Origin: Patescibacteria group bacterium
Lineage (GTDB): Bacteria; Patescibacteriota; Patescibacteriia; Patescibacteriales; GWC2-42-12
Direction of reading: 5' to 3'
Assembly: GCA_041662965.1 (NCBI GenBank)
Contig: JBAZRI010000001.1
Coordinates: 99,680-163,679 of the forward strand
Length of the DNA stretch: 64,000 nucleotides
The translations under genes were made by a program, and so were the position numbers. A model generated the notes under the pieces. It did no database searches, was not told the origin of the DNA, and saw only the letters and a list, made by a program, of their open reading frames with translations. Shown in pieces: positions 2 through 34,174 of this stretch. The stretch's first letter is position 1. Every line of letters starts with the position of its first letter.

Positions 2-1273
2 ATTTACGCGAAACTTTACGACGAAATTGAAACTCCCAGAAATGAAAATAGGCGATTTAGGGTTATGGCCGGCGCGACGAATAAGGAAAACTTAAATAAT
101 ATTTGTCGTTTATTTGAAGACGCTAAAAGCCAATGGCGGGATGTTTTTAAGGCCAATGACGAAATAGAAATTCCGGAAAACGTAGTCGTGCCGGCGGTTT
201 CTCTTCTGCAAAAATATCGGCTTTTCGGCTCAAACCTGCAGATTATAGACGATGCTTTTGAATATCTTATTAATTTGGACGCTAAGGGAGAAAAGGGCCA
301 ATATTTTACGCCGCGGCACGTAATTGATATGGCGGTAAAGATGCTAAATCCGACCTCAAAAGATTTTATTATTGATTCGGCGGCCGGCAGCTGCGGTTTT
401 TTGCTGCACGCCATGCAATATGTTTGGCAAAACGAACTGACTAAAGTTAAATATGGCGACAGTTATGATGTTAAGCAAAAAGATTATGCCGAAAAGCATT
501 TGTTCGGCATTGATTTTGATCCGCGCTCGGTTAAAATCGGCAAAGCCATGATGCTTATCGCCGGAGACGGGAAAACCAATGTAACTTATGCTAATTCTTT
601 AGATTCGGAAATTTGGAGCGAAGAAACGAAAGCGCGCTTCCGTCCGTTTTTGCGGACATTTAAAGATAGCGAAGAAAGTCGGAGAAATCAGGAAAAGATG
701 AGTGATTTTAATTTTGACATAGTTTTAACCAATCCGCCGTTTGCCGGAGAAATAAAAGGAGTTTTACTTAACCGGTATGATCTTGGCTTTAAATGGGATA
801 AAAATTTTGAAAAAACTTCAAAGCATCAAAATAAAGTTTCGCGCGACGTTTTATTTATTGAACGCAACTTAAATTTTTTAAAGCCGGGCGGGCGCATGGC
901 CATAGTTTTACCGCAAGGAGTATTAAATAATACCCAGATGGAATATGTCCGAAAATTTATTTTAACTAAAGCTAGGCTTTTAGCGGTCGTCGGTCTGCAC
1001 GGCAATACCTTTAAGCCTCATACCGGTACAAAAACTTCGGTAATATTTTTGCAAAAATTGAACGAGGGCGAAGAAGCACCGAAAGACTATCCGATTTTTA
1101 TGGCGGTTTCTAAAAAGGGCGGGAAAGATACATCCGGGGAATATATTTATAGAAAAGATAAAGATGGAAATGTTATGTTTAATATGGAAGGTAAGAAAAT
1201 TATTGACCATGATTTGGATGAGATTGCGGAGGAGTTTGAGAAGTTCGCGAAAGAGCAAAAAATTAATTTTTAA
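2..1273 (+). CDS. hsdM: Type I restriction-modification N6-adenine DNA methyltransferase subunit (HsdM-like), 5'-partial
   Basis: The frame is open from the window edge (IYAKLYDEIETP... precedes the listed Met), so the gene starts upstream. It has an AdoMet motif IIDSAAGSCGFL and the catalytic NPPF motif (VLTNPPFAG). An hsdS gene lies in the same operon. Confidence 0.85.
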   Translation: MYAKLYDEIETPRNENRRFRVMAGATNKENLNNICRLFEDAKSQWRDVFKANDEIEIPENVVVPAVSLLQKYRLFGSNLQIIDDAFEYLINLDAKGEKGQYFTPRHVIDMAVKMLNPTSKDFIIDSAAGSCGFLLHAMQYVWQNELTKVKYGDSYDVKQKDYAEKHLFGIDFDPRSVKIGKAMMLIAGDGKTNVTYANSLDSEIWSEETKARFRPFLRTFKDSEESRRNQEKMSDFNFDIVLTNPPFAGEIKGVLLNRYDLGFKWDKNFEKTSKHQNKVSRDVLFIERNLNFLKPGGRMAIVLPQGVLNNTQMEYVRKFILTKARLLAVVGLHGNTFKPHTGTKTSVIFLQKLNEGEEAPKDYPIFMAVSKKGGKDTSGEYIYRKDKDGNVMFNMEGKKIIDHDLDEIAEEFEKFAKEQKINF

Positions 1274-1275
1274 TT

Positions 1276-1851
1276 ATGACTGAATTAGTAAATATTTGGT
1301 TTTATACATTAAGTACATCTGCGCAGGTGCTAGCCGCCTTAGTTGGACTTTTTGCTGTATTTGTAGTTTATAAATTACAAGGGCTAAGCTCTTCCCTCGA
1401 GGATGTGCGGAATATTACCGTAAAAATTCTATCTCATTTTTCTCTTAATACAACGGATTTTACTAAATATAGCGAGGAAATGCTTGGCGTAAAATCTGAC
1501 AGAGAATTAATATTAGTATTCAATAAAATTTTAGAAGTGCGCGACAAAGAACCAGATAAACTGGGGATAAAATCTTACCCTATTAAAAGTAATTTATTTC
1601 AAGAAAAGTATTATAACTTAAATAATGAGACAAAAACTTATTATGAGAAAAAAGTGGAATTAAAAGAGGATATATATAAAAGACTTAAAGAAAGTCTTAT
1701 TTTTGGATTTATTTTAATTTCTGTTTGCATCCTTGAATTAAGTTTTACTAATTATTTGGTTAACTTTAAGGTTTTATTTTTTACTTCCATAGCTATTGTT
1801 TTGTATATGATATCAATTTTAAAAAATATTTATTTAATTTCTGCTTCCTAA
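1276..1851 (+). CDS. Hypothetical membrane protein embedded between hsdM and hsdS (1 N-terminal TM, about 100-aa soluble region, 2 C-terminal TMs)
   Basis: The ATG is 2 nt after the hsdM stop and the stop is 1 nt before the hsdS ATG. Hydrophobic segments are VLAALVGLFAVFVVY, LIFGFILISVCILEL and VLFFTSIAIVLYMISIL. It is very AT-rich and I recognise no family. Confidence 0.6.
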   Translation: MTELVNIWFYTLSTSAQVLAALVGLFAVFVVYKLQGLSSSLEDVRNITVKILSHFSLNTTDFTKYSEEMLGVKSDRELILVFNKILEVRDKEPDKLGIKSYPIKSNLFQEKYYNLNNETKTYYEKKVELKEDIYKRLKESLIFGFILISVCILELSFTNYLVNFKVLFFTSIAIVLYMISILKNIYLISAS

Positions 1852-1852
1852 A

Positions 1853-3217
1853 ATGATTATTTACTCAATAATCCAAAAATCAAAACTTGAAGGCGCTTTG
1901 CGGATTGATGCTGAATATTATCAGCCGGAATATTTAGAATTGGAGAAAAGGCTAAATTCATTAAAAACAAAAACTATAGATGAAATTTGCGAGTCTGTTA
2001 TTAGTTTTGGAGCGTATTCACTTACAAGTAATATAGTATGGAAAAATGATGGGGTGCCTTATATTAATGTTGGCGACATCCATAACGGATATATTAATTT
2101 TAGCAATGTTAAATATATTAGCGAAAAAGTTGATGGGATTTTGAATAAATCAAGGGTAAATAACGGCCAAGTTTTACTGACAATGGCAGGTACGATTGGC
2201 AATGCAGCCGTGGTACATAATATTCCTCGGCCAGCCAACGCTAACCAAGCGATAGCCAAGATTACTCCGCTCAAAGGTATTTCACCATACTATCTAGCGG
2301 CATTTTTAAATTCAAAATACGGCCGATTACAAACACAGCGAGAAATAGTCAGTAGCGTTCAGGCAAATATTTTTCTTGGAACTATTAAAAAATTCAAGAT
2401 TCCCGTTTTTAATAACGCGGAAACCAAGGAAGTGGAGCAAAAATATAAAAACTTTCTTAACGAGCTTGAAAACTTAAAAACTTTTTACGCGCAAGCCGAA
2501 AGAATACTTTTTGAGGAATTAGAATTAGTTGATTTTAAGGCAGATAAAAGCTTATTTTCCGTCGTGAATTTATCCGAGGTAGAAGATGCCGATCGAATAG
2601 ATGCCGAATATTTCCAGGAAAAATATAAAAAGTTGGTAAAAAAAATAAAATTAAATAACGCAAAAAGACTGGGAGATTTGGTTTCAATAAAAAAAGGTTT
2701 TGAGCCGGGAAGTGAACAATATTATGAAGAAGGAAAATTATTTATTAGGGTCAGCAGTTTATCTGTGAATGGAATTAATTTAACGGACGAAAAATATTTA
2801 AGTGAAAAATTGTATAATGAATTAAAAGATAATTATCAGCCCAAAGTCGGAGAAATTTTATTAACTAAAGATGCTACGCCCGGAATAGCTTATACCGTTA
2901 AAGAACCGGTTGAAGGGATAATGTCGGGCGGGATTTTAAGATTAAAAATAAAAGAAAATATCAATGCGGAATATTTAACCCTTTGCCTAAACTCTGTTAT
3001 TGGGAAAATGCAGGCGGAACGGGATTCCGGCGGATCGGTTATCGCTCATTGGAAACCTGAACAAATAAAAAACATGTTGATTCCAATTTTGCCGAAAGAA
3101 ATTCAAGAAAAAATTGCTGATTTAGTACGGCAGTCGCACGAAGCGAGAAAAAAGGCCAAAGAGTTATTGGAAGAGGCAAAATTAAAGGTTGAGGAAATGA
3201 TTGAGAATAAAAAATAA
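1853..3217 (+). CDS. hsdS: Type I restriction-modification specificity subunit (HsdS)
   Basis: Two-half architecture with a duplicated conserved spacer motif (LRIDAEYYQPEY and DRIDAEYFQEKY). Each copy is followed by a variable TRD-like region, and there is a C-terminal coiled coil. It is directly coupled to the methylase operon. Confidence 0.85.
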   Translation: MIIYSIIQKSKLEGALRIDAEYYQPEYLELEKRLNSLKTKTIDEICESVISFGAYSLTSNIVWKNDGVPYINVGDIHNGYINFSNVKYISEKVDGILNKSRVNNGQVLLTMAGTIGNAAVVHNIPRPANANQAIAKITPLKGISPYYLAAFLNSKYGRLQTQREIVSSVQANIFLGTIKKFKIPVFNNAETKEVEQKYKNFLNELENLKTFYAQAERILFEELELVDFKADKSLFSVVNLSEVEDADRIDAEYFQEKYKKLVKKIKLNNAKRLGDLVSIKKGFEPGSEQYYEEGKLFIRVSSLSVNGINLTDEKYLSEKLYNELKDNYQPKVGEILLTKDATPGIAYTVKEPVEGIMSGGILRLKIKENINAEYLTLCLNSVIGKMQAERDSGGSVIAHWKPEQIKNMLIPILPKEIQEKIADLVRQSHEARKKAKELLEEAKLKVEEMIENKK

Positions 3218-3450
3218 TTATTTATAAAATATGTTGAAAAAATTGAAATTAGAGAAAAAACATAAAGTTAGTTTAAAGTTAGAAAAAAAGGGTGAAGCAG
3301 TATCGCTAAATAATGAGCCAAAACACCCGATTAAACTCAAGCTTGAAAAAAAATAATTTTAACTAAGATAGAGCTTACGGAATGATTTGGAAGGGTGAGA
3401 GAGTTAATATTAATGAAATTTATCAATCCAATAGCGATCTTAAAATTATC

Positions 3451-3480
3451 AAAAACAGGTTAAATGGCCTGTTTTTGTTT
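3451..3480 (+). terminator. Candidate intrinsic terminator after the hsd operon
   Basis: Stem aaaaacagg / cctgttttt with an 8-nt loop, followed by a T-rich tail. Confidence 0.45.
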
Positions 3481-3573: not shown

Positions 3574-4089
3574 ATGCCAACCGAAAATACCAATGAACCA
3601 ATAGTAGAAACCCCAACTCCGCCGGTTGAGCCTGCGGCAGAGCCTGCTATTCCGATCGTGGCACCTGTGCTAACTCCGGAAGCTCAACCGCCTGCGGCCG
3701 AAACTCCGCCGCCGCCGGCAGAGCCGGTTAACGCGACAAACACCTCACCCCCCGCCGACGCTGAAGCTATGGCGGGCGAGCAACCCTCTCCTTATCAAGG
3801 AGAGGGAGCAAAGCAAACCGGCCAACCCTCTGGAGAGGGAGCAAAGCAAACCGGCATAACCGCTTTGCTTATGAAAGCCAAAGAGAAAATTCAGTTTAGG
3901 AAGCGGGCGAAATTGGAAAAGATTATGGCGCTGGCGCAAAGCCGGGGAAAAATTACCAATAATGACGCGCAAAAACTTTTGCGCGTGTCTGACGCTACGG
4001 CTACGCGCTATTTAGCCGAACTGGTAAAACAGGGGAGATTAAGGCGGGTTGGGCCGGCCAATAACGCTTTTTATGAAATTAACGGCTAA
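3574..4089 (+). CDS. Pro/Ala-rich protein with C-terminal winged-helix DNA-binding domain
   Basis: The N-terminal half is low-complexity P/E/A-rich. It contains a tandem GEGAKQTG repeat. The C-terminus ITNNDAQKLLRVSDATATRYLAELVKQGRLRRVG looks like a DeoR/MarR-type wHTH. Confidence 0.55.
   Translation: MPTENTNEPIVETPTPPVEPAAEPAIPIVAPVLTPEAQPPAAETPPPPAEPVNATNTSPPADAEAMAGEQPSPYQGEGAKQTGQPSGEGAKQTGITALLMKAKEKIQFRKRAKLEKIMALAQSRGKITNNDAQKLLRVSDATATRYLAELVKQGRLRRVGPANNAFYEING
3781..3855 (+). repeat. In-frame tandem duplication with hairpin-forming units inside the wHTH protein gene
   Basis: caaccctct(ccttatcaa)ggagagggagcaaagcaaaccggc occurs twice. ccctctcc...ggagaggg is self-complementary. Confidence 0.75.
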
Positions 4090-4153
4090 TTCGCGGGTCA
4101 GTTGATCCGCGGCCGCGGCTCATTTCCACCATTTGAGCCTTAAACTTAAATAT

Positions 4154-4549
4154 ATGCCTAACTACGATTGGTATGCCCAGCTTATTAAGCCCGCCTGGTC
4201 GCCGCCGGCCTGGCTGTTCGGCCCGGTCTGGACTTTGCTCTATGTTTTAATCGCGGTTTCTTTCGGCAAAGTATTTTTAATGGCCTGGCAGAAGCAAGTC
4301 ACCCTGCTAGTGGCTTTGCCCTTCGCGCTTAATTTGCTGTTTAATTTTATTTTTACGCCCATCCAGTTCGGCTTGAAAAATAATCTTTTGGCGGCGGTTG
4401 ATATTCTTCTGGTTTTAGGCACTTTAATTTGGGCGATGATCGCGATTTGGCCGCATGCCAGATGGATCGCCTACGCGCAGATTCCGTATTTACTTTGGGT
4501 GTCGTTCGCCACGGTTTTACAGCTAACCATAACTTATTTAAATAAATAA
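4154..4549 (+). CDS. tspO: TspO/MBR family (tryptophan-rich sensory protein)-like, lacking the usual first TM helix
   Basis: Signature WYAQLIKPAWSPPAWLFGPVWTLLYVLIA and C-terminal IPYLLWVSFATVL. An in-frame TGA at 4103-4105 precludes a longer N-terminus. Confidence 0.7.
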   Translation: MPNYDWYAQLIKPAWSPPAWLFGPVWTLLYVLIAVSFGKVFLMAWQKQVTLLVALPFALNLLFNFIFTPIQFGLKNNLLAAVDILLVLGTLIWAMIAIWPHARWIAYAQIPYLLWVSFATVLQLTITYLNK

Positions 4550-4568
4550 TTTTTTTAAAAACAATTTT

Positions 4569-5519
4569 ATGCCAATGCAAAAGTATCTGAAAATCGCCGG
4601 GTTTATCGCGCTGGTTATTTTGGTTTCATATTTCGGCATCATGGCCATGCTTACGGGCATGGGCAATAAATCTTACAACACTTTGTCCGTGGAATCGGGT
4701 GCCGGCATGGGAATATTCCAAACCGCGGCGCCGTCAATGAAATCCGCTCCGATGTTTTCCGGCGAAAGCGCTAGGGATTCGGCCGCGACCATAGAGCAAG
4801 CGCTAAGCCCGAGCTCGGTGGTTCAGCCGATTGATAAAAAAATCATAAAAACCGGAGACTTAAGCTTAAAGGTTGAGCGCGCGGAAACCGCGGCCGAGAG
4901 CATCACCAATATCGCCAAAGTGAACAAAGGCGAAGTGGCCGGCTCCAATTTTTACGAATCCACCCGGGGCGTAAAATCCGGCTTTATTACCGTGCGCGTG
5001 CCGTACAATAATTTTGACGCCGCCTTTGCCGAAATAAAAAAAGTCGCCACTCAAGTCGTTTCCGAGTCAAGCAATTCCCAGGACATAACCGAGCAGTATA
5101 TTGACCTGGAAGCGCGGCTTAAAAATAAGCAAGCCGAGGAAGTGTCGTTTGCCGCGCTATTAAACCGCGCCGGCAAGCTTGAAGAAATAATTTCCGTAAC
5201 CAGAGAGCTGGCCAGGGTGCGCGGCGAAATTGAACAGCTTCAGGGCCAACTGCGCTATTTAAATTCCCAAACCGATATGTCAACCATCACGGCCAGCTTA
5301 AGCGAAGACGTGGAAATCGCGGCGGCCAGCCAAGATTGGCGGCCCTGGCAGGTAATTAAGCTTTCGGTTAAACAGCTTATAACCGCCGGCCAGAATTTCG
5401 TTGACGGCCTGATCGCTTTTTTGATTGTCGTTCTGCCCATGCTCATAATTTACGGCCTGATAATCTGGGCGCTTTACCTTATCGGCAAAAAAATTTATAA
5501 CCGGACTAAAGGCTTATAG
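4569..5519 (+). CDS. DUF4349-like membrane-anchored protein
   Basis: N-terminal TM, then IIKTGDLSLKVE...ITVRVP...DITEQYIDLEARLKNK...LQGQLRYLNSQTDMSTITASL, then a C-terminal TM. This is the typical DUF4349 layout as I recall it. Confidence 0.65.
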   Translation: MPMQKYLKIAGFIALVILVSYFGIMAMLTGMGNKSYNTLSVESGAGMGIFQTAAPSMKSAPMFSGESARDSAATIEQALSPSSVVQPIDKKIIKTGDLSLKVERAETAAESITNIAKVNKGEVAGSNFYESTRGVKSGFITVRVPYNNFDAAFAEIKKVATQVVSESSNSQDITEQYIDLEARLKNKQAEEVSFAALLNRAGKLEEIISVTRELARVRGEIEQLQGQLRYLNSQTDMSTITASLSEDVEIAAASQDWRPWQVIKLSVKQLITAGQNFVDGLIAFLIVVLPMLIIYGLIIWALYLIGKKIYNRTKGL

Positions 5520-5580
5520 TTGAAAAATAGAGAATCAGTACCGGCGATTTTATAATTTATTTTTTTAAGCATAAAATAAT

Positions 5581-6234
5581 ATGATCTATCTGCTTGACCT
5601 ATTGGGCACGCTGGCTTTTGCCGTGGGCGGAGCCTATAAAGCCAAAGGCAGAAAATTAAATTTATTCGGCGTGGTTTTTTTAGGCGCCATAACCGCGGTC
5701 GGCGGCGGCACGATCCGCGACTTAATCATCGGCCGGACGCCGCTATTCTACCTTAGAGATTCTAATTATCTCTTAATCTGCTTATTGGCCGGACTGGCGA
5801 CATATTTGCTCCCCAATTTTTTTAAAAAAACTTATTCCATTTTCCGCTTGATTGATTCAATCGGCTTGGCGGTTTTCGTGATCATCGGAGCTTCTATCTG
5901 CCAATCTTTTTTATTTAACGGCGCGATCCTGCCGACGGTTTTATCCTCTTTCGCCTGCGTATTCTTAGGCATGCTGACCGGTTTCGGCGGCGGGGTTTTG
6001 CGCGACGCTATCATGGGCGATACGCCCTTTGCTTTAAAGCCCGGGTCAAATTATGTTTCCAGCGCTTTTTTCGGAGCTTCCATTTATTATTTTTTAATGT
6101 TTTTCAATAACAATCTGGCGATATTCATATCAATTATTACTACTTTGGTTTTACGGGAAATCGTGTCAGAATACGGGATATATAAAAAGCTAGTAGTTAA
6201 AAAATCATTTTTTAATAAAATCTTTAATAAGTAG
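5581..6234 (+). CDS. Trimeric intracellular cation channel / UPF0126 (YadS/YicG-like) membrane protein
   Basis: The glycine-rich motif is duplicated (AVGGGTIRDLIIGRTP and GFGGGVLRDAIMGDTP) within a 7-TM-like profile. Confidence 0.8.
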   Translation: MIYLLDLLGTLAFAVGGAYKAKGRKLNLFGVVFLGAITAVGGGTIRDLIIGRTPLFYLRDSNYLLICLLAGLATYLLPNFFKKTYSIFRLIDSIGLAVFVIIGASICQSFLFNGAILPTVLSSFACVFLGMLTGFGGGVLRDAIMGDTPFALKPGSNYVSSAFFGASIYYFLMFFNNNLAIFISIITTLVLREIVSEYGIYKKLVVKKSFFNKIFNK

Positions 6235-6528: not shown

Positions 6529-6608
6529 GATTGCGGATCAAGTCCGCAATGACAATAAATTGGAGATTGCTTCGTCGCCTCGTAGATGCGGGGCTCCTCG
6601 CAATGACA
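6529..6608. repeat. Family A palindromic repeat (GTCATTGCGAG...GAAGCAATCTC type): short variant plus full copy
   Basis: gattgcggatcaagtccgcaatgaca (6529-6554) and gagattgcttcgtcgcctcgtagatgcggggctcctcgcaatgaca (6563-6608). Confidence 0.8.
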
Positions 6609-6617
6609 AATAAAAAT

Positions 6618-7328
6618 ATGCCAGATAAAACCAATCAAAAAAATATTCCGCTTCATGTCGGTATCATCATGGACGGCAACCGGCGTTGGGCGCGGGAAAG
6701 GAATTTGCCGACTTTTGAGGGGCATCTTTTAGGCTATGAAAAAATGAAGCAGGCGCCGGAATGGTTTTTCTCCCGCGGCGTAAAAATTTTATCATTTTAC
6801 GCTTTTTCCACGGAAAATTGGAACCGCCAGCCGGTGGAAGTGAATTATTTAATGAAGTTACTCCAGAACGCGGTTGAAAATAATTTGCGCGCTTTGGCTA
6901 AAAAGAACGGCTATAAAATTTTAATCAGCGGGCGCTTGGAAGAATTGCCCGGAGATTTGCCGGCTAAATGCCTGGAAATAATCCAAGAAACCAAAGCCAA
7001 CAATCAGGGGACTGTTAACGTCTGCTTGAATTACGGCGGGCGGGCGGAAATAGTCGACGCGGCGCGCAAGCTGATAAAAAATAAAGTTGAGCTTGAACAG
7101 GTGCACGAAGGCATGATAAAAAAATATTTATACAGCCCCGATCTGCCGGATCCGGACATAATCGTGCGCACTTCGGGCGAACAGCGGTTATCCGGCTTTT
7201 TAACCTGGCAGTCGGTTTACAGCGAATTATTTTTTATGAAAAAATATTGGCCGGATTTTGAAGAGTCGGACGCCGAAGCTGTTATAAAAGAATATGAGAA
7301 TAGGAACAGAAGGCATGGAGCAAATTGA
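6618..7328 (+). CDS. uppS: Isoprenyl transferase (undecaprenyl-diphosphate synthase family)
   Basis: Motifs HVGIIMDGNRRWA, FSTENWNR and RTSGEQRLSGFLTWQS. The track start at 6531 reads through a repeat element, so ATG 6618 (or 6603) is the more plausible start. Confidence 0.9.
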   Translation: MPDKTNQKNIPLHVGIIMDGNRRWARERNLPTFEGHLLGYEKMKQAPEWFFSRGVKILSFYAFSTENWNRQPVEVNYLMKLLQNAVENNLRALAKKNGYKILISGRLEELPGDLPAKCLEIIQETKANNQGTVNVCLNYGGRAEIVDAARKLIKNKVELEQVHEGMIKKYLYSPDLPDPDIIVRTSGEQRLSGFLTWQSVYSELFFMKKYWPDFEESDAEAVIKEYENRNRRHGAN

Positions 7329-32220: not shown

Positions 32221-32680
32221 CGCTAATATCAAGGTAAGCGGATGATTACTCCGACGTTTATCGGAGAGGAAAGTCCGGACTCCAAAAGTGTTTTTACACT
32301 GGAAAAGGGCAGTGGATAACGTCCACCAAGAGTAATCTTAGGGAAAGTGCCACAGAGACAATACTAGTCCGCCTTTTCGGCGGACGAAAGGTGAAAAGTT
32401 TTCCGGTGTTTGCGTTATTTAGGATATCCGATTAACTCAAACTACGGGATTCGTCCTCCGGTGACGGAGAGACGTGGTAAACCCTGCCTGGAGCAAGAGC
32501 AAATCCACCTTCGCCGCACTATGCGCGGCTACGGAGGACAAGCCCTCGAAAGAGAAGCTTGTTCCACGAAGCTTCAGCGAAGTGGAAAAAAGTAGCTCGC
32601 TTGACTCTGGCGGCAACGCCAGGGCTAGATAGATGATCATTTAAACAGAATCCGGCTTATAGCTTGCCTTGATATTAGCG
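32221..32680 (+). ncRNA. rnpB: RNase P RNA, bacterial type A
   Basis: The P1 stem pairs cgctaatatcaaggtaagc (32221-) with gcttgccttgatattagcg (-32680). P4 strands are GAGGAAAGTCCGGACTCC and ACAGAATCCGGCTTAT. GGTAAACCCTGCCTGGAGCAAGAGCAAAT and GGCTAGATAGATGATCA match conserved E. coli M1 RNA blocks. Confidence 0.9.
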
Positions 32681-32734
32681 GAATATAAAATTTGCAAAAT
32701 TTATCTCGTAACGCATAACAAAAAAATATCAGTT

Positions 32735-34174
32735 ATGCGTTATTCGTTATTTATGAAACAAAGTGAATTATTTTTTTCATTTTTGCTCGTGCCGCTGGAT
32801 TTTTTAATGATTATTTTAGCCGGCATCTCGGCTTATTATTTGCGTTTTGCCAGCCTGGCCACGGAAATCAGGCCGGTGATTTTCAGTTTGCCGTTCGGCG
32901 ATTATTTCCAAATTTTATTGTTAATCGCTTTCGCCTGGCTGATTATTTTCGCTCTAGCCGGTTTATACAGCATAAAAGCCTCGCGCCGTTTAACCGCCGA
33001 AGTTTATCGGGTGATTTTAGCTTGTTCAACCGGGTTGATGCTGATAGTAATTATGATTTTCGCTTTTAGGGAGCTTTTTTCTTCCCGCTTCATAGTTTTA
33101 GCCGGCTGGCTGTTAGCCATAGTTTATATCAGCTTTGCCAGAATTATTATCAGATTGGTCCAAAGAATTTTATTAAGATACGGCATCGGCGTGCATAAAA
33201 TCGTTTTGGTTGGCGATAGCAATACCGCCGACGCCTTAATCCATGAATTTTCCGGCCGAAAAAATTCAGGCTATGAAGTTGTAAAGCGCTTGAAAAATTT
33301 CAGCCTGGAAGCGGGGGAGGATTTAGCCGAATTTTTAAAAGCCGGCGAAGTTGATGAAATCATACAGAGCGACCCGAATTTAAGCAAAGCCGAGGCCATC
33401 CGGCTATTTGACTTTGCCGATGAAAATCATATTATTTTTAAATATGCCGCCGATTTGCTTGGCGCTAAAGTATTAAAGACCGAAGTTTCGGAAATCGCCG
33501 GCATACCGGTAGTGGAAGTTAAAAAAACGCCCCTAGAGGGCTGGGGCAGAATTATAAAAAGAATTTTTGATATTATTTTATCTTTGTTGTTTATAGTAAT
33601 TTTCAGCCCGGTTTTTATTATTACCGCCGTTATAATCAAGCTTGATTCCCGCGGACCGGTTATTTATAAAAATGAGCGAGTTATAAAAAACGGCACTTTT
33701 AAATTATTTAAATTTAGGTCAATGATCTATCATTATTGCGTGGGCGAAGATTACGGCAACGACCAGGCTCTGGAGCTGGAAAAAAAATTAATTGAAGAAA
33801 AAAGCATTAAAACCGGCCCGGTTTATAAAATCGCCGATGATCCGCGCCTGACCGGCGCCGGTAAATTTATCAGGCGCTGGAGCATTGATGAACTGCCGCA
33901 ATTTTTTAATGTTTTGCGCGGCGACATGAGCTTAGTCGGACCGCGGCCGCATCAGCCCAGAGAAGTGGCTAAATACGAGCGCCACCATAAAAAAGTTTTA
34001 TCAATCAAGCCGGGCATCACCGGCCTGGCGCAGATTTCCGGCCGAAGCGACTTAAGCTTTGAAGACGAGGTTAAACTGGATATTTATTATATTGAAAATT
34101 GGTCTTTGTTATTTGATATCGCCATTATGTTAAGAACACCGTTAGCGGTTATAAGGGGCAGGAAAGTTGAATAA
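32735..34174 (+). CDS. Polyprenyl-phosphate sugar phosphotransferase (bacterial sugar transferase / WbaP-like)
   Basis: N-terminal TMs, then RIFDIILSLLFIVIFSPVFIITAVIIKLDSRGPVIY, FKFRSM, DELPQFFNVLRGDMSLVGPRP and KPGITGLAQISGR. The track start at 32669 overlaps the 3' end of rnpB, so ATG 32735 or 32753 is more likely. Confidence 0.85.
   Translation: MRYSLFMKQSELFFSFLLVPLDFLMIILAGISAYYLRFASLATEIRPVIFSLPFGDYFQILLLIAFAWLIIFALAGLYSIKASRRLTAEVYRVILACSTGLMLIVIMIFAFRELFSSRFIVLAGWLLAIVYISFARIIIRLVQRILLRYGIGVHKIVLVGDSNTADALIHEFSGRKNSGYEVVKRLKNFSLEAGEDLAEFLKAGEVDEIIQSDPNLSKAEAIRLFDFADENHIIFKYAADLLGAKVLKTEVSEIAGIPVVEVKKTPLEGWGRIIKRIFDIILSLLFIVIFSPVFIITAVIIKLDSRGPVIYKNERVIKNGTFKLFKFRSMIYHYCVGEDYGNDQALELEKKLIEEKSIKTGPVYKIADDPRLTGAGKFIRRWSIDELPQFFNVLRGDMSLVGPRPHQPREVAKYERHHKKVLSIKPGITGLAQISGRSDLSFEDEVKLDIYYIENWSLLFDIAIMLRTPLAVIRGRKVE

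Follow-up and report, generated by a model that had tools for sequence, protein, structure and literature searches.

A family of predicted membrane proteins encoded directly upstream of hsdS in restriction–modification loci of Patescibacteria

We analyzed a 64,000-nucleotide (nt) stretch of the genome of a Patescibacteria group bacterium (assembly GCA_041662965.1, contig JBAZRI010000001.1, positions 99,680 to 163,679 of the forward strand; hereafter, the window), which opens with the genes of a restriction–modification (R-M) system. Between the methylase gene, here called RM, and the gene for an HsdS-like specificity subunit (S) lies an open reading frame (ORF) for a 191-amino-acid (aa) protein with three transmembrane (TM) helices, here called X. 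X genuinely belongs to a large family of unannotated proteins of about 190 aa from the candidate phyla radiation (CPR), and it is specifically and recurrently paired with hsdS across four nuclease arrangements. Restriction systems probably have in X a new accessory protein at the membrane, and an accessory-defence role, argued by analogy with known guard genes, appears to be the best reading. The features on which the argument rests are listed below, in window coordinates; window position 1 corresponds to position 8726 of L001, the contig bearing the cassette.

2..1273, + strand: RM gene, 3′ two-thirds (aa 220–642 of 642), with only the methyltransferase (MTase) part within the window (Pfam N6_Mtase, Eco57I)
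1276..1851, + strand: X, 191-aa three-TM protein, coupled to both neighbours (ORF, homologues, ratio of nonsynonymous to synonymous substitution rates (dN/dS), AlphaFold2 (AF2) model)
1297..1374, + strand: TM1 of X (aa 8–33), WFYTLSTSAQVLAALVGLFAVFVVYK (column conservation, helical-face reading)
1375..1683, + strand: cytoplasmic region of X (aa 34–136), as predicted from AF2 secondary structure and the positive-inside rule
1684..1845, + strand: hairpin of TM2 (aa 137–156) and TM3 (aa 164–190) of X (hydropathy scan, AF2 helices)
1853..3217, + strand: HsdS-like specificity subunit of 454 aa containing two target-recognition domains (TRDs) (Pfam Methylase_S, PADLOC Specificity_I)

The X family and its pairing with hsdS

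The three genes form one tight unit, as the initial annotation of the window had described. According to the ORF list and the raw sequence, a 5′-truncated frame-2 ORF stops at the TAA of 1271–1273, X extends from the ATG at 1276 to the TAA of 1849–1851, and the hsdS ORF starts with the ATG at 1853 and ends at 3217, leaving intergenic gaps of 2 nt (RM–X) and 1 nt (X–S). A Shine–Dalgarno sequence was not visible before the start of X or that of S, and this, together with the short gaps, fits termination–reinitiation coupling. The AT-richness noted earlier for X and hsdS was reproduced, with GC contents of 27% and 34%, respectively, vs 39% for the methylase gene and 41% for the 64-kb window.

The GC content of 27% and the lack of any database annotation would be compatible with a spurious AT-rich ORF in the hsdM–hsdS spacer, an outcome that the initial annotation had considered. 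However, X is under purifying selection (dN/dS ~0.18 in three pairwise comparisons), it has hundreds of full-length homologues of the same length that share a conserved motif, and its AF2 model reaches a predicted local distance difference test (pLDDT) score of 90. The probability of a spurious frame is practically nil.

A word-indexed search retrieved 36 close homologues of 178–227 aa, down to 32% identity, and a profile search of 1.8 billion representatives retrieved 732 clusters at E ≤ 1e-3, with 114 at E ≤ 1e-10. Among the matches listed (79–295 aa), most relatives are full-length, at about 160–260 aa, and none is fused to S, to the modification subunit (M), or to an enzyme domain. All taxonomically named relatives belong to Patescibacteria/CPR, with carriers in the Paceibacterota, Saccharibacteria, Parcubacteria, and Peribacteraceae, and in the cultured Minisyncoccus archaeiphilus.

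The AF2 model of X, built on the 36-sequence alignment (pLDDT 90.3; predicted template modelling score, 0.77), contains helices at aa 2–58, 67–71, and 75–91, followed by short strands and by helices at 117–156 and 164–190. The TM1 and TM2 helices extend as a stalk under a small, variable α/β head (aa 59–116). The charged region carries 18 K/R and 17 D/E residues, and the N-terminus and the TM2–TM3 loop have no K/R, which places the middle region in the cytoplasm under the positive-inside rule. The predicted topology is N-out, with TM1, a cytoplasmic stalk and head of ~100 aa, and a TM2–TM3 hairpin. The initial description of three TM helices around a charged region of ~100 aa agrees with both the hydropathy scan and the AF2 model.

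Conservation within the family is highest in TM1, whose consensus reads W-(F/Y)-Y-T-(L/F)-S-T-x-A-Q-V-L-A-A-L-x-G-L-F-A-V-F-V-V. The column conservation of TM1 was 0.92 in the close set and 0.67 in 129 distant members, vs 0.43 and 0.18, respectively, for the head. Q17 is invariant in the 129-sequence alignment (A2), in which conservation reaches at least 90% for Y10, S13, and F29. With the TM1 helix read at 100 degrees per residue, one face is shared by Y10, S13, Q17, A20/A21, G24, and A27.

X itself had no match in Pfam, PADLOC, or NCBIfam. When the 129 family members were compared with Pfam, PADLOC, and PHROGs, no family was matched by more than four of them and all matches were weak; the scattered TM-type matches were to DUF2207_C (four members), DUF6594 (three), and DUF2721 (three). 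A profile search of the PDB returned no relative, and the best Foldseek matches of the model, with E values of 0.2 (PDB) and 0.55 (BFVD), were not significant. The known membrane effectors (SLATT, PycTM, the CBASS TM effectors, and others in PADLOC/Pfam) gave no profile match and were rejected as identities for X. X is a real, non-canonical membrane protein without a Pfam match, consistent with the initial view that the middle ORF is not a normal type I component. An ordinary housekeeping membrane family, which had been raised as the other possible identity, was not returned by Pfam, NCBIfam, PADLOC, PHROGs, PDB, or BFVD. We know of no multi-pass membrane protein family tied to hsdS, and literature searches likewise gave none. 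BcgI/BsaXI-like RM+S enzymes and accessory genes embedded in R-M operons are already known; what appears to be new is the X family, without profile or structural relative, and its fixed position 5′ of hsdS in loci with unrelated restriction enzymes.

The downstream neighbour of X was readable in 27 distinct loci. In seven of these, hsdS was the immediate 3′ neighbour and apparently coupled to X in translation, with gaps of −8 to +4 nt:

L001 (this window): RM-X-S; X–S spacing 1 nt
L022/L023: RM-160-PRiA4-207-X-S; X–S spacing 1 nt
L004: hsdM-AAA_21-RloB-X-S-90aa-hsdR; X–S spacing 4 nt
L007: hsdM-207-X-S-GHKL/HSDR_N_2-hsdR; X–S spacing 3 nt
L034: hsdM-147-X-S-hsdR (EcoEI_R_C type); X 29% identical, 8-nt overlaps on both sides
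L038: hsdM-X-S-167-328-hsdR (EcoR124_C type); X–S spacing 3 nt
L039: hsdM-118-120-X-S-PIN_12-277-hsdR; X–S spacing 4 nt

An hsdM-X-hsdS triad, whose conservation had been raised as a question in the initial annotation, was borne out in the form M-(0–3 genes)-X-S in the six loci other than the window. The nuclease of the seven loci is a fused domain or an HsdR of the T1RH-like_C, EcoEI_R_C, or EcoR124_C type: five of the six further loci encode a full HsdR, and the sixth, L022/L023, has the same fused nuclease as the window. At least three families are represented among the M proteins. The S proteins that follow X have diverged strongly from one another, and no common feature was found among them. 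Between M and S lie one to four genes, and X is the last of them in 7/7 loci (P about 0.007). The adjacency of X and hsdS has a binomial P of 1e-13 to 5e-6 (7/27, or 5/25 with sister lineages collapsed) at an assumed hsdS background of 0.2–1% of genes. In a neighbour-joining tree of X, the S-linked members are scattered, deep branches included, so the X–hsdS linkage is either old or repeatedly re-formed.

No second accessory gene is shared between M and X; the intervening proteins compared (147, 160, 207, 207, 118, and 120 aa, RloA/B, and PRiA4_ORF3) were unrelated by BLAST. A further locus, L017, reads hsdM-X-156aa-(partial S-like ORF). The CxxC-rich 156-aa gene (L017 1080–1760) and the S-like ORF both start with MSKL(I/L)EQxN, which weakly suggests an insertion into an original M-X-S arrangement with duplication of the 5′ end of hsdS. 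Additionally, the CPR type I operons L004, L007, L038, and L039 are crowded with accessory genes at the M–S or S–hsdR intervals, including AAA_21 with RloB, a GHKL ATPase with HSDR_N_2, PIN_12, several unknowns, a Lactamase_B-like gene (faint Pfam match), and a Trypco2-like gene (under the Pfam cut-off).

The restriction enzyme and its cassette

In Pfam searches, the first ORF of the window matched N6_Mtase (6e-36) and the third matched Methylase_S (2e-22) in two stretches. The complete RM gene (L001 8070–9998) encodes 642 aa with HSDR_N_2, N6_Mtase, and Eco57I domains. Its HSDR_N_2 nuclease domain (83 bits, aa 60–168) carries the PD-(D/E)xK residues E86, D101, and E117-x-K119, which are invariant among five homologues, and the MTase part carries motif I (DSAAGSCGF, at window positions 374–400) and motif IV (NPPF, at window positions 731–742). 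RM scored 433 bits against the PADLOC MTase_I model PDLC03034, and S matched PADLOC Specificity_I at 2e-58. The top PDB match of RM was the type IIB enzyme RM.BsaXI (8w0p, 2e-28). By these domains and motifs, RM is a single chain of an N-terminal PD-(D/E)xK nuclease and a gamma-type N6-adenine MTase, and RM with the HsdS-like subunit has the BcgI/BsaXI (type IIB) architecture, which would be expected to cleave DNA on both sides of a bipartite site.

The initial annotation had read these genes as a type I operon without hsdR and had placed hsdR, if present, upstream of the window. Neither proposal held: the presumed hsdM itself carries the N-terminal nuclease domain, and the gene 5′ of RM is a lexA-like gene behind the operon promoter, beyond which lie two tRNAs and housekeeping genes. 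HsdR was absent from the 64-kb window (tblastn with two HsdR queries) and from the 7 kb upstream. An HsdM_N domain was not found in the full RM protein, and the TIGR00497 hsdM model scored 43 bits (cut-off 243). A classical type I R-M system was rejected on the lack of a separate HsdR and of HsdM_N, the two-TRD HsdS being the feature in common.

The nearest annotated relatives of RM (43–46% identity) are plasmid-borne. Those of Klebsiella and Trichormus are two-gene systems in which the S gene directly follows the RM gene, and that of Picosynechococcus is a single, 1179-aa annotated N-6 DNA methylase that may include the S part. None of these plasmid relatives has an hsdR, a gene between RM and S, or X. 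Since the nuclease is fused to the methylase and the two-gene plasmid relatives have no hsdR, HsdR is neither needed nor missing here. Loci of this kind are an annotation trap, as what looks like a type I operon without hsdR can be BcgI/BsaXI-like and complete.

The first gene of the R-M cassette is the lexA-like gene (213 aa, LexA_DNA_bind and Peptidase_S24; L001 7337–8064), which lies 662–1389 nt 5′ of window position 1, with 5 nt separating its end from the start of RM. A perfect TTGACA-17-TATAAT sigma-70 promoter, which is kept in the orthologous locus, stands in front of it, and the −10 box ends 8 nt 5′ of the lexA-like ATG, yielding a nearly leaderless mRNA. The direct repeat AGTCATAT occurs twice inside this promoter. 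Upstream of the promoter lies the palindrome ATAGCT-N6-AGCTAT, which reads ATGGCT-N6-AGCCAT in the orthologous locus, a compensatory change. These features suggest a self-cleaving repressor that may serve as the controller protein of the restriction system, and its place as the first gene in a mobile R-M cassette hints at damage-responsive restriction control.

The orthologous locus, L022/L023, shows identities of 73% (LexA), 52% (RM), 72% (X), and 62% (S; the same value holds for the S following the X orthologue in L014/L023). Nucleotide homology between L001 and L022 begins at the lexA promoter and is interrupted only between the RM gene and X, with the break falling exactly on the RM stop codon and the alignment picking up again where X starts. 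In L022, an extra 1.86 kb (4136–5995) lies between the RM stop and the X start (window 1273/1276) and holds three genes, for a 160-aa protein, PRiA4_ORF3, and a 207-aa TM protein. The RM–X junction is an insertion/deletion hot spot, in line with the initial remark that R-M loci act as landing pads for accessory genes. The upstream flanks of the two cassettes are unrelated, and a homology that starts at the lexA promoter between differing flanks points to a mobile unit. In L001, tRNA-Ala(CGC) (6589–6662) and tRNA-Pro(CGG) (7146–7217) lie directly upstream of the cassette; at the cassette boundaries, we found no att-like repeat of the tRNA-Pro 3′ end downstream and no flanking direct repeats. 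A called 148-aa ORF on the minus strand (L001 6571–7017) overlaps tRNA-Ala and is probably spurious.

The lexA-like, RM, X, and S genes form a complete, self-contained, and mobile four-gene cassette from promoter to terminator. Two further features lie downstream of hsdS:

3231..3356, + strand: 41-aa Lys-rich ORF with KLKLEKK repeats, gene status uncertain (ORF list)
3450..3477, + strand: terminator-like hairpin, 12-bp stem followed by a T run (consensus scan)

The hairpin is probably the 3′ end of the lexA-like/RM/X/S operon. The initial statement that only a terminator follows hsdS was roughly right: the hairpin lies 233 nt past hsdS, but the 41-aa ORF precedes it. This ORF is annotated as a gene on two contigs carrying the locus, had no Pfam or family match, and may be a repeat region instead.

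Elsewhere in the window, positions 3574–4089 encode a 171-aa protein whose N-terminal half is Pro/Ala-rich with a 33-nt tandem repeat (GC 54% vs 41% for the window) and whose C-terminal part is a winged helix–turn–helix with weak DeoR, AbiEi, and SoFic-like matches. A bacterial class A RNase P RNA (196 bits) occupies 32230–32675. Its 3′ end overlaps the start of a listed 501-aa ORF (32669–34174), and the TTG start of that ORF is therefore probably wrong.

Possible roles of X

We favour, with somewhat less than even confidence, a role for X as an S-coupled membrane effector or guard, by analogy with Ronin and PrrC. Guard genes, among them PrrC, RloC, and RonA, are known accessories of R-M operons, and the defence-type neighbours in X loci comprise RloA/RloB, PIN_12, a GHKL ATPase, an AbiU2-like HEPN, HEPN, NYN, type III R-M, an integrase, and a prophage. 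A near-invariant polar face of TM1 combined with a fast-evolving head argues against a passive anchor or an irrelevant passenger, and this contrast in conservation is what would be expected if the membrane part is active and is linked to a part that binds a partner or a signal.

X would then be an accessory membrane module of the S-containing complex. It would assemble in the membrane via the near-invariant polar/small face of TM1, and its fast-evolving cytoplasmic head would contact the methylase/specificity core, so that the membrane would respond to the state of this complex. A block of the restriction complex, as by an anti-restriction protein of a phage, would lead X to alter membrane permeability and bring about abortive infection. 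Copies outside R-M loci could use the same membrane part with other partners or act alone. More tentatively still, X may represent a CPR-wide family of membrane subunits that physically couple HsdS-containing R-M complexes to the cell membrane, in type I families with three kinds of HsdR as well as in a type IIB-like fusion enzyme, either by tethering restriction at DNA entry or by turning complex inhibition into permeabilisation, with the TM1 polar face as the oligomeric active part.

Several observations weigh against a restriction-coupled effector. The locus sample is small, was partly picked by available sequence length, and consists of loci that are not phylogenetically independent; the hsdS background in the binomial test is an assumed value, not a measured one. 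In 19 of the 27 loci, hsdS does not lie directly 3′ of X (L017 may keep a displaced, partial S-like ORF). About 10 X loci have ordinary neighbours, as in X-glyoxalase and X-RimK-like, and a 194-aa subfamily lies upstream of a Pyr_redox_2/Rubredoxin_C oxidoreductase and a DsbA-like thioredoxin (L031 5001–7670, L032 4012–6839). The same RM+S family occurs without X in other phyla, and X resembles no known effector in PADLOC, Pfam, PHROGs, PDB, or BFVD. The main counter-evidence is provided by the stand-alone copies of X, which argue against a constitutive toxicity that M/S would have to neutralise.

R-M genes do not always accompany X: many of its loci contain none, so that strict dependence on M/S is not established. 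We also found X near a divergent type III mod/res system that is accompanied by a Schlafen-like gene, near N6_N4 and Dam methylases, and in other defence-like contexts (XRE-X-AbiU2-like HEPN-SF1 helicase/nuclease; X-HEPN; X-155aa-NYN; integrase-X). The sole viral context found was that of the M. archaeiphilus member (166 aa, L033 5001–5501), which is flanked, in a prophage-like region, by a Bro-N gene on one side and by portal/Mu-F and capsid genes on the other. Searches with tblastn for X returned nothing from 50,697 phage or 72,556 plasmid records, and two IMG/VR scans were also empty; given these results and the single prophage context, a phage or plasmid origin of X was rejected.

Such loci bear on the view that X is an autonomous membrane defence or exclusion protein, which alone would block, for example, phage DNA entry and merely co-travels with hsdS. 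The M–S interval would then be an insertion hot spot, with X and S moving as a cassette. The copies of X without R-M genes by an integrase, in the M. archaeiphilus prophage, and beside HEPN, AbiU2-like, and NYN genes speak for it, as do the unrelated accessory genes that occupy M–S intervals and the 1.86-kb presence/absence polymorphism exactly at the RM-stop/X-start junction. However, random insertion leaves the constant contact of X with hsdS (P about 0.007) unexplained. At least three unrelated M families and strongly diverged S proteins take part in the pairing, at X identities of 29–40%, and no relative of X occurs among the 50,697 phage records, IMG/VR, or PHROGs. We consider autonomous action rather unlikely.

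A housekeeping CPR membrane protein, whose R-M position is a by-product of compact genomes and frequent rearrangement, would account for the large size of the family (732 clusters), the ordinary neighbours in many X loci, and the 194-aa subfamily, found in the same Pyr_redox_2/DsbA context in 2/2 loci examined (L031, L032). It is improbable in view of hsdS lying immediately 3′ in 7/27 loci across different R-M families; moreover, X lies inside a mobile cassette, and its repeated carriage between M and S of transferable operons is not expected of a housekeeping gene. The 194-aa subfamily may be a housekeeping branch of the X family. A DsbB/VKOR-like role for this Pyr_redox_2/DsbA-linked subfamily was rejected, as it has no conserved cysteines.

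X could also have a structural, non-catalytic part in the S-containing methylase/nuclease complex and hold it at the cytoplasmic membrane, in one variant near the sites of phage injection or of competence/pilus DNA uptake, where incoming DNA would be scanned first. CPR bacteria are thought to depend on competence and pilus DNA uptake, and E. coli type I enzymes have reportedly been described as membrane-associated by Holubova and co-workers. Stoichiometric partners typically show such a strict order (X, then S) and such a spacing (−8 to +4 nt), the linkage is independent of the kind of nuclease, which would make the S/M core the partner, and the modelled cytoplasmic stalk-plus-head architecture would suit protein docking. 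Furthermore, stand-alone copies show that X is tolerated without S, and elsewhere X tightly precedes soluble enzymes (glyoxalase, RimK-like, Pyr_redox_2, HEPN). A passive anchor needs hydrophobicity only, yet conservation in the family peaks in TM1, with its polar residues Y10, S13, and Q17. To our knowledge, no R-M enzyme has a dedicated membrane anchor, and in other phyla this RM+S family functions with no X. Such tethering is unlikely, but it ranks second after the guard reading, marginally ahead of autonomous action and further ahead of a housekeeping role.

Little has been explored of how CPR/Patescibacteria defend themselves. The X family, which numbers at least 700 clusters, has a confident and unmatched fold, and lies repeatedly 5′ of hsdS across unrelated enzymes, offers a clonable hypothesis: restriction complexes either can have a connection to the membrane or are guarded by a new effector located there. 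If X does couple restriction complexes to the membrane, it would constitute a fourth, membrane-embedded R-M component.

Comparison with known systems

The enzyme part resembles BcgI and BsaXI in its chain of a PD-(D/E)xK domain and a gamma N6-adenine MTase, its separate two-TRD S, and the lack of a translocase; it differs from BsaXI in that the alignment with RM covers the MTase region only. We know of no type IIB system with a membrane protein gene between RM and S or with a lexA-like first gene. The best NCBIfam models were those of MADS, namely MAD2 for the methylase (291 bits, cut-off 720) and MAD5 for S (180 bits, cut-off 400), and PADLOC mad2 and mad5 also match. As these scores are far under the cut-offs and the operon has four genes, none like the other MADS components and without other mad matches, membership in MADS was rejected.

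The predicted order of TM1, a large cytoplasmic domain, and a TM2–TM3 hairpin, and a membrane complex linked to nucleases, recall Zorya ZorAB and ExbB/TolQ. An ExbB/TolQ/MotA identity of X was rejected, since hhalign of the X profile against E. coli TolQ gave a probability of 0.3%. None of the 129 X members matched MotA_ExbB in Pfam, and the Foldseek match to TolQRA had an E value of 2. A TolR/ExbD/ZorB-like partner was not noticed among the genes beside X, where no search was aimed at such partners.

PrrC of the EcoprrI locus is inserted in a type I operon, whose R-M enzyme holds it in a latent state; inhibition of the enzyme by a phage peptide activates PrrC. PrrC and RloC are soluble ABC-ATPase anticodon nucleases, and rlo genes are embedded in Campylobacter hsd loci. 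X shares with them the position of an accessory gene inside R-M operons, and the M–S interval of L004 contains RloA-like and RloB genes. X differs from PrrC and RloC in its membrane location and in having no nuclease or ATPase domain, and it does not belong with them.

Ronin of E. coli ECOR55, which comprises RonA, HsdS, and HsdM, confers decoy immunity (Silas et al., bioRxiv 10.1101/2023.04.06.535777). RonA, a 61-aa TM effector with one helix, is sequestered by HsdMS and freed when Ocr or ArdA bind; it is lethal alone, and ronA homologues are always linked to hsdS/hsdM (bioRxiv 10.1101/2023.04.06.535777). The X cassette resembles Ronin in a small membrane protein gene tightly linked to hsdS/hsdM and in a locus without a separate hsdR. 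Among documented systems, Ronin also comes closest to the logic proposed for X, in which M/S would restrain the membrane effector until phage anti-restriction proteins free it. Compared with RonA as described, X is larger (191 aa), and it has two more TM helices, three in all, as well as a cytoplasmic domain that is folded. Ronin has lost its nuclease, whereas the methylase of the X cassette carries an intact PD-(D/E)xK domain. X is linked to hsdS in about a quarter of the sampled loci, in contrast to the constant linkage of ronA, and the stand-alone X genes suggest that X, unlike RonA, is not lethal alone. Membership of X in Ronin was rejected on size, topology, and nuclease status, but the tight linkage to hsdS/hsdM is common to both.

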